Source of the DNA: Candidatus Heimdallarchaeota archaeon
Lineage (GTDB): Archaea > Asgardarchaeota > Heimdallarchaeia > Hodarchaeales > Hodarchaeaceae
NCBI GenBank assembly: GCA_020353515.1
Contig: CP070695.1
Location: forward strand, 4,325,589-4,389,588
Direction: 5' to 3'
Length of the DNA stretch: 64,000 bases
Shown here: positions 3,531-11,033 of the stretch, piece by piece
How the letters are laid out: each line of letters opens with the position of its first letter
Numbering within the stretch: the stretch's first letter is position 1
Program-made: the position numbers and the translations under genes
The notes under the pieces: generated by a model
What the model saw: the letters and a program-made list of their open reading frames with translations, nothing else
Database searches by the model: none
What the model was told of the DNA's origin: nothing

Positions 3531-4427
3531 ATGGCTGAAATTGTTCAAAGTGAAGAAGCTACAGTGAAGATAAACGGTATTGAGATAACGTATGATACTT
3601 TTGGAGACCCTCAAGCTGCCCCAATGTTGCTTATTATGGGATTAAGTACTCAGATGATTATGTGGGACGAAGCTTTTTGCAAAGCGATAGCTTCAAATGG
3701 ATATTGGGTTATCCGTTTTGATAATCGTGATGTTGGACTTTCAACAAAGTTTGACAATGCAGGTATCCCCGATTTAATGGAAATGATGATGAAAGTCCAA
3801 CAGGGAGAAGAAGTAAAAGCCCCTTATACATTATTAGACATGGCAAAAGATGCGATTGGATTACTCGATGTATTGAAAATTGATACTGCTCACATTGTAG
3901 GTGCATCTATGGGAGGAATGATAGCTCAAACTATTGCTATTCATTATCCTGAACGAGTACGTACTTTGACATCAATTATGTCGACAACTAGTAATCCAGA
4001 ACTACCACAACCAGGACCAGAGGCAATATCTATTCTGATCACACCTCCTCCCTCTGAAAGAGCTGAATATATTGAAGATTCAGTAAAAACATGGAGGTTT
4101 TTGAATGGGGAGTTATCATTTGATGAGGATTTTGTACGAGAACGCTCAACCCAAGCTTTTGATAGGTGTTACTATCCTGTTGGCGCTGGAAGACAACTCG
4201 CGGCCATTTTAGCCTCTGGTAGTCGTAAAGAGGAACTTAAAAATGTTAAGGTGCCAACTCTAGTGATTCATGGAGATACTGACCCCCTAGTTCCTGTTGA
4301 AGGAGGAAAAGAGACAGCAGAAGTCATTCCAGAAGCAAAATTATTGATTTTAGAAGGAATGGGTCATAGTATTCCGGCAGAAGTGGCGCCAAAAATAATA
4401 GAAGCCATAGTAAAACATGCTATTTAG
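3531..4427 (+). CDS. alpha/beta-fold hydrolase
   Basis: DNRDVGLS, nucleophile elbow GASMGG, HGDTDPL, GMGH. Confidence 0.92.
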   Translation: MAEIVQSEEATVKINGIEITYDTFGDPQAAPMLLIMGLSTQMIMWDEAFCKAIASNGYWVIRFDNRDVGLSTKFDNAGIPDLMEMMMKVQQGEEVKAPYTLLDMAKDAIGLLDVLKIDTAHIVGASMGGMIAQTIAIHYPERVRTLTSIMSTTSNPELPQPGPEAISILITPPPSERAEYIEDSVKTWRFLNGELSFDEDFVRERSTQAFDRCYYPVGAGRQLAAILASGSRKEELKNVKVPTLVIHGDTDPLVPVEGGKETAEVIPEAKLLILEGMGHSIPAEVAPKIIEAIVKHAI

Positions 4428-4504
4428 CAGGGAAAAGATAATCCCAGGGGGAAAATTCTGTATTAAGTGTGGAGCAGTTATAAGTAGAAAATCCAGCTAG
4501 TTAA

Positions 4505-5062
4505 TTAGGTGAGCCGTTTCTCTAATTCCAAGAAACGCTCCTGCAATTTGATAATAAAAGAATCAAGCTCTTTCTCAACAGTGCTGATCCATTCAATCAA
4601 AATATCAAGGGCTAAAAGAGCTTGTTTCCCTTTTGTTGTTCCTTTGGATTCCTCTGAGAGCGATGTTCCCCAATGTTCTCGAATCCTAATTAGATCATCA
4701 GCTTTTTCTTGTAAAGAATTAGCACTTTGATCGTAGATGTGAATCAACAATTCACGAAAAGAAGTAGGCTCAACCTGGTATTTCCATTCGCGACTACCTG
4801 GTTCACGCCTTCGAGTAATTAAGTTCCAATTCTCAAGTTCTTTTAAATTTCTGCTAATTGTCGAGGGATTGACTTTGAATTTCTCAACAAGATCTTTTTG
4901 GAGTAAGGGTTTATCAGGGGACGATAAGACACATAAAGCATAAATTCGCCCTAATAGTGGTGATCCACCCCGATCATACATGAAATCTTCAAAAAAATTG
5001 GAAATCTCTTCCTCTAACTTTGATATATCTTGTGAATCTTCCTCACTACTAATATCTGACAT
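4505..5062 (-). CDS. GbsR/MarR-like winged-helix transcriptional regulator
   Basis: GRIYALC...QKDLVEKFKVNPSTISRNLKELE...RREPGSREWKY. Confidence 0.8.
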   Translation of the reverse strand: MSDISSEEDSQDISKLEEEISNFFEDFMYDRGGSPLLGRIYALCVLSSPDKPLLQKDLVEKFKVNPSTISRNLKELENWNLITRRREPGSREWKYQVEPTSFRELLIHIYDQSANSLQEKADDLIRIREHWGTSLSEESKGTTKGKQALLALDILIEWISTVEKELDSFIIKLQERFLELEKRLT

Positions 5063-5289
5063 AAGATTTCAACCTATATTGATGAAAGAGCACTACAAAC
5101 ACGAAAAATAAAGACCTTTATAAAAATATTATTAATTTCTTATGAGCTTAATTATAATCTCATGAAGCTCTACTCAAGTGACATAAGAACCTTCTCTAGG
5201 TTGGTTTTGTAAGAAATTTCTTTAAAATAAACAAAGATATTCTATTCCAACACTCGAATGGGTCTGAATGTCTAAAAAAATGGCTGTGA

Positions 5290-7005
5290 TTGACGTTGAT
5301 CACTAATTTATCCCTACAGAATTTTAAAGGATTCGGGTATCCTGGTCAGAACATCCCAATGAATCGAATCACGTTACTTTTTGGTGCTAATAGCGCAGGA
5401 AAAACCTCAATAATTCAATCTCTCCTTTTGCTTCACCAAACGATTACTGAAGCCACAGATCCTACTACAGTATTACTACCAAATGGTACTCTCATCTCAT
5501 TGGGAAGTTTCAGAGAATTTGTCCACAAACATGATCTAGATCGGGAAATAAAAATCGGGATCGAATCTGAATATATTGATAGTATGTGTTTCTCTTTTCG
5601 TTTACAAAACAATCTAATGGAAATGGCTAGTTTTGAAGGGTTAGCAAAAGAATGGATGACTACTAATTCAAAAATACAGAATTGGGAAAGGATTCGTTTT
5701 CGTGGAGAAAATGCTGATAGAAATCGTTACAATATGAATTTCATCAATTATGTTGAAACCTTTGATCAATTATTGCAACAACCAAACATTATCGAAGATT
5801 TGATTAAAGAAGTTCAAAGACGAAAAGAATTCACTGAACGAACCCTAAAGTTATTAGAAGGAGAAATGACCCAAATAGATAAGAAACAGTTGATTGAAGA
5901 AGAAGATAAAGACATTTATTCTCATAAAATGATGAATTTTTTAGTAACTAATATTTTTAGATCAATAAAGGAGGGAGGGGAAACAAGGCCTCAGGATGAA
6001 CTCAAGAATTTGTTGTTATACTTATCACCACAAGATTTTGAATTCACAACAGATTTATTGAAATTTACAACAAGTAAAGAGCTAATACAGCTCTTTAATG
6101 AGGTAATAACTTCAATTAAAGAGAAAAGGATCAGTAGTATGTTAGATTTCCAAGAAAAGGTAACTATAAGTAACCTCTTAATGTTAAAATCGAATTTTAC
6201 TCTTGAAAAAAACGAAAAAGGAAAAACACCTGATTTACAAAAAGAACAGATTAAAAAATTGATATTTACTACAATTTTCCGTGAGTATTTCAATATCCCA
6301 TCAATGAAAAAGAATATTGAGTATACTAGGAAGAAAATAAATCATCAGTTGGCTCGAATACTTTTCTTAGGGCCCTTAAGACGCGAACCTGAAAGATATT
6401 ACTTTTTTTCTGGTAATGTCCCAACTGATGTTGGTAAGAAGGGCGATAAAACAGCTGAATCTCTATTTTATTCCAAAGACATTCAAGAAGCTGTTAATAA
6501 GAAACTAAATGAACTAGGTATTGATTATCACATCAATGTGACTCCAATCTCTGGAGAAACAAAGGATATTTTCAGTGTACGGTTATTGGATCAAACACTG
6601 AAGACTGATGTTAGCATTTCGGAAGTAGGATTCGGCTTCAGTCAAATTCTGCCAATTATTGTGCAATCGTATTTATCTACTGATAACATTATATGTATTG
6701 AGCAACCTGAAATACATATTCATCCACGATTACAAACAGAACTTGCTCAGTTATTCTATGAAAGAGTTAAGGAAAATAAAAAGCTTCAGTATATCATTGA
6801 AACACACAGTGAACATATTATTCTCCGTTTTCAAAAATTAATACGGAAACAACAACTAAAGCCATCAGATATTTCTGTTATTTACGTTATGAAAGAAAAG
6901 GAAGGGATAATCTGTAAACAACTTAAACTGGATCAGAAGGGAGATTTTATTGACCCCTGGCCTGAAGGATTTTTTGATGAAGCATTTAAAGAAAGGTTTG
7001 GTTAA
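5290..7005 (+). CDS. ABC-type ATPase (AAA_15/AAA_21-like) with C-terminal DUF3696-like tail
   Basis: LQNFKGF, Walker A GANSAGKT, helical insert, LGPLR, signature VGFGFSQ, Walker B IEQPEIHIHP, H-loop ETHSE, tail GDFIDPWPEGFFD. Confidence 0.88.
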   Translation: MTLITNLSLQNFKGFGYPGQNIPMNRITLLFGANSAGKTSIIQSLLLLHQTITEATDPTTVLLPNGTLISLGSFREFVHKHDLDREIKIGIESEYIDSMCFSFRLQNNLMEMASFEGLAKEWMTTNSKIQNWERIRFRGENADRNRYNMNFINYVETFDQLLQQPNIIEDLIKEVQRRKEFTERTLKLLEGEMTQIDKKQLIEEEDKDIYSHKMMNFLVTNIFRSIKEGGETRPQDELKNLLLYLSPQDFEFTTDLLKFTTSKELIQLFNEVITSIKEKRISSMLDFQEKVTISNLLMLKSNFTLEKNEKGKTPDLQKEQIKKLIFTTIFREYFNIPSMKKNIEYTRKKINHQLARILFLGPLRREPERYYFFSGNVPTDVGKKGDKTAESLFYSKDIQEAVNKKLNELGIDYHINVTPISGETKDIFSVRLLDQTLKTDVSISEVGFGFSQILPIIVQSYLSTDNIICIEQPEIHIHPRLQTELAQLFYERVKENKKLQYIIETHSEHIILRFQKLIRKQQLKPSDISVIYVMKEKEGIICKQLKLDQKGDFIDPWPEGFFDEAFKERFG

Positions 7006-7011
7006 GAAGAA

Positions 7012-8043
7012 ATGAAATTTCACGTCTTTTCTCTTTCCCCCAGTTGTTTTCAAAATAATAACCCAATTGAGGTAACAATCAAAATATTAAGTCTATTATT
7101 CCGTCACGCTCTACTCTTTAATCATCAAGATCTATACGGAAAAATAATTCGGAAACTTAGCTTAAACTTGGATCATAATCGAGTTAAGGATCTTGAATTA
7201 TTGTTACTAATGTACCATAAAGAAAAACGAATAGTGGAAGTGATTAAGAACGAATCTCATGATTTTAATTCTTTATGTCAATTAAACAAATATCTCTTTG
7301 AACAAGGTATCACTATTCTTTTCTCAAAGGAGGAAATGACACCTTCCGCGTCAACAACTTGTGGAAATTCGTGTTTTATGGCAGAGAAATCACATATTGA
7401 TGTCTATACATACGTGGATGATTTCCCAATACCTCCTTCACAAGAAATTCGGTTAGAGAAGCAATATGATAATGAATGGATGAAAGAGAACATTTATAAT
7501 CCTCTGTTAGTCGGTTCCACAATTATACGTATTGTAGATCCGTTTGTTGGAAGAGAATTGTACAATATTGCTGATGTAAAAGTTGATAGATGGGAGACAG
7601 AAAGTCATTGGGTGTACTCATTAACAGAAATTTTCAACCTCTTCCAAGATCAATCTATCTTTAAAGATCGGAAGTATTTCATCTACACGGCAGTTAGAGT
7701 CGATGAAGAACATAAAGCAATAGAAACTGCAGAGCGATTCCGAAAACAATTTCTGAATGATACCAGTATTATTGTCAAATTTTTCTTCTATGTCTATGAA
7801 AAGTCTTTCAATCCTCCAGATGAGTTCCCCCATGATAGGTATATACTTACAGATAATGTAGGGGTGAATATTGGCATAGGTTTGGATACTATTAACCCAG
7901 ATAACCAACAAATCAGGCGAGAAACCCAATTAACCTTTGTTGGAAATGAAACAGTGGCTTCAGTTATGTCTCAGCTAAAGAACATCCCAATAGGTACGGT
8001 AAAGGGAAAAAAAAGTCGAATCTTAAGAAGAAAAACCATTTAG
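7012..8043 (+). CDS. Hypothetical protein with C-terminal MITD1-C/PLD-like (HDR) domain
   Basis: IRIVDPFV and PHDRYILTDNVGVNIGIGLD resemble the MIT_C pattern (IxDPY...HDRxI...IGRGLD); starts 6 bp after the ATPase stop. Confidence 0.65.
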   Translation: MKFHVFSLSPSCFQNNNPIEVTIKILSLLFRHALLFNHQDLYGKIIRKLSLNLDHNRVKDLELLLLMYHKEKRIVEVIKNESHDFNSLCQLNKYLFEQGITILFSKEEMTPSASTTCGNSCFMAEKSHIDVYTYVDDFPIPPSQEIRLEKQYDNEWMKENIYNPLLVGSTIIRIVDPFVGRELYNIADVKVDRWETESHWVYSLTEIFNLFQDQSIFKDRKYFIYTAVRVDEEHKAIETAERFRKQFLNDTSIIVKFFFYVYEKSFNPPDEFPHDRYILTDNVGVNIGIGLDTINPDNQQIRRETQLTFVGNETVASVMSQLKNIPIGTVKGKKSRILRRKTI

Positions 8044-8055
8044 GTAACATAGATA

Positions 8056-8931
8056 TTAAATAATCTTTACTCCACAATTAGAGCAAAATATCTCGTTAGG
8101 TGAAATTCTCCTCCCGCAATTAAAACAAAAACTAATTTCATTTCGTCTATTAAGTGGTTTTGCCATCTGGTTCGGATAACGTGGTTCATATTGTTCCATA
8201 AACCGTCTTCTTTGGGATCTTAAACTAATGGTAAGGAAAATACCTACAATGGCAATGATTCCAAAGAAGAATAATATTCCAATCATTCCAAGACCAAGAA
8301 ATATGAAATTATCTGAACTATCTGAATATATATATTGTGGATCCGCTAATGTTTCAGAAGTTATTTCTAACCTCGAGGAGGAATAGTAGCCATTCTCTCT
8401 CGAGGCTAATTGAATTTCCCCATCATTGTTAAAGGAATCAAGTCTAAAATAGAATTTCCCATTATCTCTAACATTGTGGGCTGCACTCAAAGAACATTCA
8501 TAACGCCCAGGTTCAGTGATTGTTCCCTCACTCACCAAAGTCTCTTCATTTATATTTGGTTTATTTTCCCAATTTATTAATTTCTCTTCAAAAGAAAAGG
8601 TTTGCCAGACTCTAAAATTGAATGAATGATTATCAGTGATTATTGAGGTAATATTAAGGTTTAAAATCACTCTTAAGACCTCCCCAGGAAAAGGCAGGTC
8701 CCTAACGCGAAAAGCCAGATAGGAATAATGCAATGTTGATGTAGAACTATTAGAACTTACTTTCAAATCTAAAGTATCGCCATAATTAATATTTGGATTA
8801 GAAGAAAAGATATAGGCATCAAAATTACAAATAAAGATAGTAGTACGTTCTATTAACGGATTACAAGTTGTTGGAAGAAAACTTAGGAAAGGAATGGAAA
8901 ATAGAATAAAAATTAAAGCCCTTTTTTTCAT
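8056..8931 (-). CDS. Single-pass membrane protein: signal peptide, DNRLRE/CBM96-like ectodomain, TM, cytoplasmic zinc ribbon
   Basis: DAYIFSSNPNINYG, WENKP, ASREN; TM FIFLGLGMIG...; C-terminal CFNC...CSNC. Confidence 0.7.
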   Translation of the reverse strand: MKKRALIFILFSIPFLSFLPTTCNPLIERTTIFICNFDAYIFSSNPNINYGDTLDLKVSSNSSTSTLHYSYLAFRVRDLPFPGEVLRVILNLNITSIITDNHSFNFRVWQTFSFEEKLINWENKPNINEETLVSEGTITEPGRYECSLSAAHNVRDNGKFYFRLDSFNNDGEIQLASRENGYYSSSRLEITSETLADPQYIYSDSSDNFIFLGLGMIGILFFFGIIAIVGIFLTISLRSQRRRFMEQYEPRYPNQMAKPLNRRNEISFCFNCGRRISPNEIFCSNCGVKII

Positions 8932-9096
8932 CTTTTCACCTAAATTATGTGTTGTTACTCCAGAGATTATTAGTCTGATTTCCTCCCTTCCTCATTTTCT
9001 TCTTAAATTTATTCTTTGGAGAACAATCCTAAAACAGCAAAGGAAGGGCACTTTAATCTTCTAAAAACCATTTCATTAAAAAAAAATTAATTTTGC

Positions 9097-10010
9097 TTAT
9101 TCTATTTCAAATCCTGTAATTATTTCTGGTGGTAACTTTCTCAGATATTCAACTAACGATAAAAAACCAAAATTATTCACTTGTTTTTGGGTTTGAAAAG
9201 ATTGGATAACCTTGTACAATTTAATAGCTCGGATGAATTGTATTTTAGAAAGGAGGATCGCTTCTGGATAACGTAAAGTTGTATAAGCTATTAAAGCGAG
9301 TCCTAGAAAATCAAACAAACTGGGAAGAATTGGATTTGTTATCCACAAAGATAAATTATGACCAAGGTTCAAAATAGGCCGCATACACCCTAATGCTGTA
9401 GCAATAACCCATAAATTTCTCGCTGTGTGGACTCTATTATCAGTTATCACATGTTTTGTTGTTAGATAAACATAAATGAACAGCGATAATACAAAAAATC
9501 GATAACCCTCTAATAGTAGTTGAAAACCACTTGCCAGTAAAATAATTCCATTTTAGGTAATTAATCCTACCCCTACATCAGGGGAATGAAAATCGACATA
9601 CTTCCTCATCTTAACAAACAATACTAGTCCCGTCTCGGGAAGATTCACAACTTCATACAATAAAATGAATGTCTGAATAATAGAAAACCAAATCACTCCT
9701 ATAAGCAATATAATTAGAGGGGGACGATCCCACTTCATTCGTATTGTATAAACGAAGATAAACAAGAAAAATATCATAAATGTACTATCTACGATTTGCC
9801 ATACTAACACCACCGGTGAGGAAAGGTTGATCCGAATGACGTCAGAAAACTGTTGAATTGTAAGTGTTATCCACATCTCAGTATATAACAGATAATCAAA
9901 AATCTTCGTCCGAAAATAGTATCTCAAAAAATAGTAGCAGGAATTAGACTTAATAATGCTACTCCAATACGAATCCAGTCGAAAACAGTAAGAGATTCTA
10001 GTAAAAGCAT
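9097..10010 (-). pseudogene. Multi-pass membrane protein gene with a frameshift and an in-frame TAA
   Basis: ATG at 10010 after AGGAGAAGG gives MLLLESLTVFDWIRIGVALLSLIPATIF, which needs one extra T in the run at 9926-9931 to join LRYYFRTK. The TAA at 9553-9555 is followed in frame by NGIILLASGFQ..., running into the 9097..9450 ORF. Confidence 0.65.
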
Positions 10011-10335
10011 AGTAACCAAAATTCCTTCTCCTTAGACTAATCACATGCTTGGTCACTCTTTACAGCTGAAAGTTGACACGATTTACAGTAGATCTCACCA
10101 CTACTCGTCTCAATGATACACTTTTCACAAAAATTTCCTGCACAAAAAGCACAATTATAATTTGATTTCCGTTTTTTGCACCATTCACACCATTCAAAGA
10201 GCTTGTCTTGGATCATCTTCTCTTATGACATTGTGAAAAGGTGTTTTTAACATTTCACCTAAAGCAGTTATTAATCTTTAATAATTGAAGAAAAATTTTT
10301 ATCATGATTATTATTCACTGAATAAAGGATTTAGT

Positions 10336-11033
10336 ATGTCACAAGAATTTTCTCTTCCACGACTTATTGTCCAAGTAATAGTTGGGTTTATTTTTTATGG
10401 TATTTTTTTTTTGTACCCGCAGGTTCTATAGAATGGATAGAAGCTTGGATATTTCTTATCATTACCTTTCTCTATGTGATGGTAATCGTCCTTTATTTCT
10501 GGAAAAAAGATCCTACAATTCTGTTATCTCGGTCCAAAATCAAGCCTGAAAAAGGATTCGATACAGTATTTTTTTTGATTACAGGTTTAACTTTTTTCTC
10601 AATGTTTCTCATTACTGCTTTTAGCGTGAATCCTGCATTAACTGATCTATTTCCGTGGTCAAATTTCAGAGTTCCATTAGCAATCGAATTCATTGGATTT
10701 GGTGGGATGATACTTGCCTTTACAATATTATTCATTGTAATGCGGGAAAATGCTTACGCATCAAAACGAATTGGAGTAGATGAAGGGCAAAAAGTGATCA
10801 CAACAGGCCCCTATTCGTATGTTCGCCACCCGATGTACATCGGATTCATTATCATGACTATTTGCTTCCCAGTAGCACTTGGGTCATTTCTTGCTCTACC
10901 ATCAGCGGTACTTGTCGTTATTCTTATCGCTGTTCGAGCAACTTATGAAGAAAAGACATTAATAAAAGAATTGGAAGGATATAAGGAATATACTGAAAAA
11001 GTACGTTACCGATTAATACCTAAGATATGGTAA
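10336..11033 (+). CDS. Isoprenylcysteine carboxyl methyltransferase (ICMT/Ste14/PEMT) family protein, frameshifted at a T10 tract
   Basis: VITTGPYSYVRHPMY, EEKTL, YRLIPKIW. ATG 10336 (MSQEFSLPRL...) joins VPAGSIEWIEAWIF only if T10 at 10403-10412 is T11. Confidence 0.8.

Follow-up and report, generated by a model that had tools for sequence, protein, structure and literature searches.

An ATPase gene and an effector gene lie as a pair in a Hodarchaeales genome

The window analysed here is a stretch of 64,000 nucleotides from Candidatus Heimdallarchaeota archaeon (contig CP070695.1, positions 4,325,589 to 4,389,588), whose genome consists of one contig of 4.94 Mb. At positions 5290 to 8043 of the window, two genes follow each other on the same strand with a gap of 6 bp; they encode an ABC ATPase (P0001) and a two-domain protein (P0002) that resemble the ATPase and the effector of the defence system Menshen. 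A sequence-only reading had proposed the pair as a new defence system of a probable Asgard archaeon, and the open reading frames that it gave (5290-7005 and 7012-8043) and the gap between them agree exactly with the list of open reading frames. Judging by homologue names and by the set of genomes returned for the order, the host belongs to the Hodarchaeales, an order in the Heimdall group of the Asgard archaea. As had also been claimed, both flanking genes are unrelated to the pair and encoded on the opposite strand (Table 1).

The pair has a GC content of 0.330 compared to a window mean of 0.358 (standard deviation 0.0195 among windows of the same size). Values as low occur in 11% of these windows, which means that its description as AT-rich is only weakly true. 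The AT shift is mild, and an argument for recent transfer from composition was rejected as weak. At the borders of the pair, neither direct or inverted flanking repeats beyond chance size nor tRNA-like features were found, and no Rfam family was detected in the region 4000-10500.

Table 1. Features of the ATPase-effector pair, its neighbours and related ATPases (window positions unless a genome and contig are named).
Feature	Position	Strand	Details and evidence
ABC ATPase gene P0001, NsnB/HEC-03-type	5290..7005	+	571 aa, TTG start; Pfam, PADLOC, AlphaFold 2 model
Walker A, residues 32-40, GANSAGKTS	5383..5409	+	alignment A2
Fast-evolving, largely helical insert, about residues 121-355; candidate sensing region	5650..6354	+	identity comparison, model
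Walker B region, residues 468-476, ICIEQPEIH	6691..6717	+	alignment A2
DUF3696 C-terminal tail, residues 523-568	6856..6993	+	Pfam 1.4e-6
Effector gene P0002, NsnC-like	7012..8043	+	343 aa, ATG start; AlphaFold 2 model
N-terminal PIN-like domain, residues 1-143	7012..7440	+	structure comparison; no conserved acidic residue
C-terminal PLD-fold domain, MIT_C/PB-PLD1 type, residues 144-343	7441..8040	+	
D176 in IVDPF, directly after strand 171-175	7537..7539	+	invariant in 24 sequences; strands from model
HxR(x)4D(x)6GxGxD motif, residues 274-292 (HDRYILTDNVGVNIGIGLD)	7831..7887	+	alignment A1
MarR-type regulator, divergent, upstream flank of the pair	4505-5062	-	
CBM96/zinc-ribbon protein gene, convergent, downstream flank of the pair	8056-8931	-	
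Shorter P0001-like ATPases of relatives	G004:C285:9566-9958; G002:C4:89069-89590; G018:C27:298268-298846; G023:C491:750-1172		

P0001 is an intact ABC ATPase with a fast-evolving insert

Searches against Pfam assigned P0001 to AAA_15 (1.3e-22), AAA_21 (6e-18) and, at its C-terminus, DUF3696 (1.4e-6). Three PADLOC ATPase models matched almost equally well, HEC-03B (5.3e-59) being the best, followed by NsnB (4.7e-56) and PDC-M55A (8.9e-52), and the weak-to-moderate matches of the AriA, GajA and PtuA models were far below those of HEC-03B and NsnB. The AlphaFold 2 (AF2) model of P0001 displays a head like those of SMC, Rad50 and AriA with a long helical insert.

The helical insert and the DUF3696 tail that the sequence-only reading listed are present, and so are the Walker A, Walker B and H-loop motifs of an intact ATPase. 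In alignment A2 (15 ATPases from Asgard archaea and bacteria), residues G32, N34, S35, G37, K38 and S40 of Walker A are invariant, as are E471, Q472, P473, E474, I475 and H476 of the Walker B region and G551, F553, I554, W557, P558, F561 and F562 of the tail; expressed as motifs, GPLR, VGFGxSQ, IEQPEIH and ETHS are invariant throughout the alignment. The Walker B stretch of P0001 reads IICIEQPE and carries E-Q where D-E is usual, which resembles the E-N reported for NsnB (PMC12065111), and the H-loop is ETHSEH. In the tail, P0001 has FIDPWPEGFF, an instance of the strongly conserved family pattern FIDxWPxGFF.

Conservation is distributed unevenly along the protein. When P0001 is compared to its homologue in the related genome G004, the insert (residues 121-355) shows 41% identity compared to 71-86% for the cores, and in comparisons with bacterial copies the identities amount to 8-17% for the insert, 32-50% for the two ATPase cores and 51-59% for the DUF3696 tail. 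Residues 154-355 are helical in the model, with some stretches at low confidence (predicted local distance difference test, pLDDT). We regard this insert as a candidate for the infection-sensing region. Several relatives also encode shorter ATPases (402-448 aa; Table 1) that share 29-37% identity with its C-terminal portion and presumably belong to other AAA_15/DUF3696-type systems.

P0002 combines a PIN-like domain with a PLD-fold domain

No match to P0002 itself was obtained in Pfam, PADLOC or NCBIfam. Its AF2 model (pLDDT 85.5, predicted template modelling score 0.86) consists of two domains. Alignment A1 contains 24 full-length effector homologues, of which the 15 Asgard sequences are 33-80% identical (14 of them 53-80%) and the 9 metagenome or bacterial sequences 17-21%. 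Repeating the word-based search for homologues with the A1 profile yielded no further members, and a comparison of this profile with the sequences of solved structures gave chance matches only. Invariant residues in A1 are D176, G180, H274, R276, Y277 and G290; R181, T280, D292 and R303 are nearly so.

The N-terminal domain, which the sequence-only reading had missed, matches numerous PIN-fold structures, among them Nmd4 (8.5), Chp1 (7.7), SMG5 (7.2), HARP (7.2) and VapC proteins (5-6). Like the N-domain of NsnC, it lacks the D-E-D-D catalytic residues, and it is probably a catalytically inactive PIN domain because no acidic residue is conserved in it among the 24 sequences.

The phospholipase D (PLD)-like part of P0002 had been recognized correctly: the best structural match of the C-terminal domain is the C-domain of MITD1, in agreement with the likeness that had been claimed, and the motifs IVDPF, PHDRYILTD and IGIGLD are all present. 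In enzymes of the PLD type, the HKD motif has the spacing HxK(x)4D(x)6G, in the superfamily form HxK(x)4D(x)6GSxN. In P0002, H274-x-R-x4-D-x6-G-x-G-x-D mirrors this spacing and occurs once per chain; within it, H274, R276, Y277 and G290 are invariant and T280 and D292 are conserved in at least 90% of the A1 sequences. The motif directly precedes strand 277-279, like the HDR before beta5 of PB-PLD1, and the position of D176 corresponds to the D/E after beta2 of PB-PLD1 and MIT_C. Among the bacterial family members, P0023 and P0024 match the PADLOC NsnC model PDLC03880 over the PLD domain (7e-6 and 1.5e-3, respectively). The effectors of Hodarchaeales end in a strongly basic tail (residues 329-343, KGKKSRILRRKTI; window 7996-8040), which the model shows with confidence as a terminal strand and which bacterial homologues lack.

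The pair corresponds to two of the three Menshen components

Menshen is a three-part system composed of the sensor NsnA, the ATPase NsnB and the effector NsnC (Li et al., NAR 2025, PMC12065111). NsnA is a DUF262 sensor (ParB-DUF262 plus ParBDB), and NsnB, an ABC ATPase, bears a DUF3696 tail and is marked by an R in place of the Q-loop, by a GxG signature and by changes in Walker B (PMC12065111). In NsnC, an inactive PIN domain at the N-terminus is followed by a variable C-terminal effector, and one class of these proteins, inPIN + PB-PLD1, has a MIT_C-like domain with D/E after beta2 and HDR before beta5 (PMC12065111). P0001 shares with NsnB the AAA_15 ATPase, the DUF3696 tail and the motif variants, and P0002 shares with the latter NsnC class the inactive PIN-like N-domain and the MIT_C-like PLD domain with D and HDR at the same places. 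The order from ATPase to effector and the tight coupling are also the same, and association with type I restriction-modification (R-M), seen in bacterial relatives of the pair, has been reported for Menshen. Menshen parts B and C are therefore present in the pair. To call the system undescribed, as the sequence-only reading did, is too strong, since the ATPase is of the NsnB/HEC-03 type and the architecture of the effector has already been published for NsnC (PMC12065111).

In contrast to Menshen, no NsnA was found in the operon of the pair, in the 4.94-Mb genome or in any of 22 related loci. The DUF262 model (PF03235) gave no match in the genome of the host, and the same model responded in 7 of 14 control genomes. 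No open reading frame with a DGxQR motif was present in the 22 related loci (flanks up to 8 kb); DUF262 proteins are encoded elsewhere in the genomes of the bacterial hosts, but no DGxQR open reading frame lies inside the fetched flanks of their pairs. Also, the gene upstream of the ATPase encodes the divergent MarR regulator, not NsnA. P0001 differs further by some 200 more variable helical insert residues than the PADLOC NsnB model covers, and its host is an archaeon whereas the published survey reports bacteria only. That survey could not have recovered NsnA-less pairs because it was seeded on NsnA (PMC12065111). What is new here is the consistent lack of NsnA and the archaeal occurrence.

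A second relative is HEC-03, which consists of two genes for an ABC ATPase and a VapC-like PIN protein, without DUF262, and which protects E. coli when both genes are present, its expression being toxic in this host (Payne et al., bioRxiv 10.1101/2024.01.29.577857). The pair recalls HEC-03 in having two genes, one for an ABC ATPase and one for a protein with a PIN-like fold, with no DUF262 partner, and HEC-03B is the best model for P0001. However, in P0002 no acidic residue of the PIN-like domain is conserved and a PLD domain is attached that the HEC-03 partner lacks, and P0002 matches no HEC-03 model. In PARIS (AriA/AriB) and Septu (PtuA/PtuB), an AAA_15-type ABC ATPase likewise restrains and regulates a separate nuclease effector, but those effectors are TOPRIM/DUF4435 (AriB) or HNH (PtuB) proteins and those ATPases have no DUF3696 tail as effector clamp; P0002, with its PIN-like and PLD-fold domains, showed no AriB match in PADLOC. 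The most fitting reading of the pair is that of a two-gene form, lacking the sensor, of an already known antiviral system of the Menshen/HEC-03 kind and not of a wholly new one.

The two genes stay together at varying sites

Among 24 Hodarchaeales genomes, 7 encode the effector and in all 7 the ATPase lies immediately upstream, cut by contig ends in one case and broken in another. At the genus level, 7 of 22 genomes carry the pair. A profile search of 301 Asgard genomes identified 8 carriers, 7 of them in one genus; the eighth (G049) belongs to another family of the class, outside the Hodarchaeales, and also has the ATPase upstream. In a species-level genome collection, which contributed loci from Nostoc, Pseudanabaena, other cyanobacteria and one Polyangiaceae metagenome-assembled genome, the ATPase was found directly upstream on the same strand at 18 of 18 loci, the genes often overlapping. 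The neighbourhood survey therefore bears out the conserved pairing that had been claimed, the genes being adjacent at every locus recovered. Trees of ATPase and effector agree in a strongly supported Hodarchaeales clade with G002 as first branch and with G000 and G020 paired; in the effector tree, G004 and G018 are not resolved. The two genes are a tight operon and a co-evolving unit. The nearest outgroups of the Asgard family are bacterial copies; the trees, in which long branches occur, are unrooted.

Two loci carry damaged copies. In G009 (Heimdall-group chromosome CP070760), the ATPase gene is disrupted: the part for residues 392-571 lies next to an intact effector (L049, G009:C1:1206000-1220000) and residues 3-191 are encoded about 66 kb away (L050, G009:C1:1142000-1151000) beside a HATPase_c gene, which in G004 precedes the intact ATPase. 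Either a rearrangement or a misassembly accounts for this arrangement, whose geometry does not fit a simple insertion. In Pseudanabaena sp. Salubria-1 (L038:5974-8222), the effector is split by a DDE transposase gene on the opposite strand (380 aa, 6606-7748), and this locus is a decayed copy of the system.

The surroundings of the pair are syntenic in relatives, with a helicase-MFS-hydrolase-MarR block on one side and an ICMT-DUF169-hydrolase block on the other, and the slot between them varies. It holds the ATPase-effector pair in G000, G019 and G020, whereas G015, G011 and G018 have a pair of ABC-2 transporter genes there, in some cases accompanied by further genes; in G018 a copy of the ATPase-effector pair sits on another contig. 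Synteny in relatives thus speaks for the inserted cassette of the sequence-only reading, and composition does not.

The likeness of the ATPase head to SMC and Rad50 and of the PLD domain to MITD1, together with the ordinary neighbouring genes, might suggest an Asgard housekeeping function, either an SMC/Rad50-like ATPase with a repair nuclease or a MITD1-like ESCRT partner. Against such a function stand the presence of the pair in just 7 of 22 genus genomes and 8 of 301 Asgard genomes, its differing sites with replacement by a transporter pair at its own site in relatives, and the bacterial nature of its closest outgroups, which occupy R-M and CRISPR loci; searches of the Asgard genomes revealed neither a MIT domain, an ESCRT neighbour nor a MIT_C match. 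We consider this explanation highly improbable.

In bacteria, some copies stand beside known defence genes. In Nostoc, the pair comes after HsdR-HsdM-HsdS (type I R-M), and in Pseudanabaena it directly follows a 645-674-aa RAMP protein amid more RAMP, Uma2 and CARF genes (type III CRISPR). A defence-locus setting is therefore seen for these bacterial relatives in R-M and CRISPR loci and not for the Asgard copies, which lie among ordinary genes. A tblastn search of plasmid and phage collections found no copy of the pair. Another explanation is a selfish function like that of toxin-antitoxin pairs, in which the ATPase would neutralize a toxic PLD protein and the pair would persist by post-segregational killing, with no antiviral role. 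Patchy spread, varied sites and the decayed copies (the split ATPase in G009 and the effector cut by a transposase in L038) would suit such an element, as would the toxicity of HEC-03 in E. coli. The lack of matches in the plasmid and phage collections, the embedding in R-M and CRISPR operons and the phage defence given by the nearest tested relative, HEC-03, argue against it, as does an ATPase of 571 aa whose intact catalytic motifs and fast-evolving insert exceed the needs of an antitoxin; addiction as the sole function seems very unlikely to us.

Proposed function of the pair

We propose, with a probability of roughly 0.7, that the pair moves horizontally as a two-gene module of the Menshen/HEC-03 kind, acts against viruses or other mobile elements and works without an NsnA (DUF262) sensor. 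The following scheme, in which complex formation, trigger, catalysis and substrate are predictions, builds on the observed anatomy, conservation, linkage and context. In published AlphaFold 3 models, NsnB forms a tetramer and pairs of DUF3696 tails clamp the PIN-like domain of NsnC, analogous to Septu and PARIS (PMC12065111). By analogy with these NsnB-NsnC models, P0001 would oligomerize and its tail pairs would clamp the inactive PIN-like domain of P0002, so holding the effector in check. The long fast-evolving insert of the ATPase might detect an infection cue and so take the role that NsnA has in three-gene Menshen, after which ATP binding or hydrolysis would change the conformation of the effector or release it. 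The PLD domain probably needs a second copy to build its active centre because each chain contributes one HxR...D half-site. Paired PLD domains would then cut phosphodiester bonds, most likely those of nucleic acid, and so halt either the virus or the cell that it infects.

Several points weigh against this proposal. P0002 matches no PADLOC model, and the R-M and CRISPR contexts, seen in two sets of genomes that are each related among themselves, count as about two independent observations. Asgard copies lie outside recognizable defence islands, with MarR, hydrolase, MFS, GNAT and sulfotransferase genes as neighbours, and several bacterial copies are found among housekeeping genes. In addition, the best structural match, MITD1, binds membranes, so that catalysis by P0002 and its substrate are predicted only. 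Eukaryotic MITD1 is known as a membrane-binding protein and not as a nuclease.

A different mode of action can be imagined for the same defence module, in which the PLD-type domain would attack membranes or lipids, or just bind them as MITD1 does, in place of nucleic acid and kill the infected cell by membrane damage. We think this quite unlikely, given that the other NsnC effector classes are mostly nucleases (PMC12065111), that the PIN-like domain suggests recognition of nucleic acid, that the invariant H, R and D favour catalysis over mere binding, and that bacterial homologues lack the basic tail.

A bolder version of the proposed defence function is an autonomous NsnA-less system in which viruses are sensed by the hypervariable insert and the PLD domain of the MIT_C type acts as a phosphodiesterase that has to dimerize after its release; in this full form we hold it to be rather doubtful. 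If it were true, the PLD-like domain of MITD1 would be a domesticated relic of a prokaryotic immune effector, and this dead-looking domain would become experimentally approachable via its prokaryotic cousins.

Hodarchaeales have been reported to possess few recognized defence systems (PMC11291487). The pair adds a candidate to them, of which current PADLOC models see a lone ATPase only. It also indicates that the ATPase-effector core of Menshen can exist without a DUF262 sensor in archaea as well as in bacteria, which bears on the question of which part senses.

Relationship to MITD1

The structural kinship between the PLD domain of P0002 and MITD1 is real. With 16-17% sequence identity between P0002 and the MITD1 C-domain (Pfam MIT_C, PDB 2YMB/4A5Z), the likeness is structural only, and the two proteins differ in that MITD1 is a eukaryotic ESCRT-III partner without such an ATPase and P0002 has no MIT domain. 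The kinship of PB-PLD1 to MIT_C was already noted by Li et al. (PMC12065111). The Pfam model MIT_C (PF16565) did not match P0002 and matched one of the 24 relatives at E 0.043, and in the host genome and 301 Asgard genomes no MIT_C match exceeded the cut-off. A sub-threshold MIT_C match at L040 was a false positive in an ABC-transporter ATPase, and apparent co-mentions of MIT_C and defence in the literature were also false, being due to the name 'Mitchell'. An Atlas feature search returned one cluster with MIT_C in 13% of its members (score 0.94).

The sequence-only reading had considered the pair relevant to the question of how MITD1 arose. A route to MITD1 through Asgard archaea is unsupported because no MIT_C is found in the 301 genomes, the family is rare and patchy among them (8 carriers) and its outgroups are bacterial, and this claim should be dropped unless new evidence appears. 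As prokaryotic relatives of the PLD-like domain of MITD1, the members of the family are compact and conserved, have invariant H, R and D residues, and offer a tractable route to ask whether a PLD-like domain of the MITD1 type is an enzyme.

Other genes at the loci

Downstream of the CBM96 gene, which is patchy in the genus, two small open reading frames on the minus strand (117 and 167 aa; 9097-10056) have no Pfam family and are absent from the syntenic region of G015. The MarR-adjacent slot of relatives (L053:5108-7497, L054:2807-5784 and L055:909-3916) encodes a DrrA-like ABC ATPase and an ABC-2 permease, and slots of this transporter type also contain a response regulator or a 325-aa protein of no known family. 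In G049 (L048:9319-13936), a 1153-aa protein resembling ResIII helicases and a 384-aa protein without family are encoded upstream on the same strand, and this locus may constitute a larger multi-gene system.

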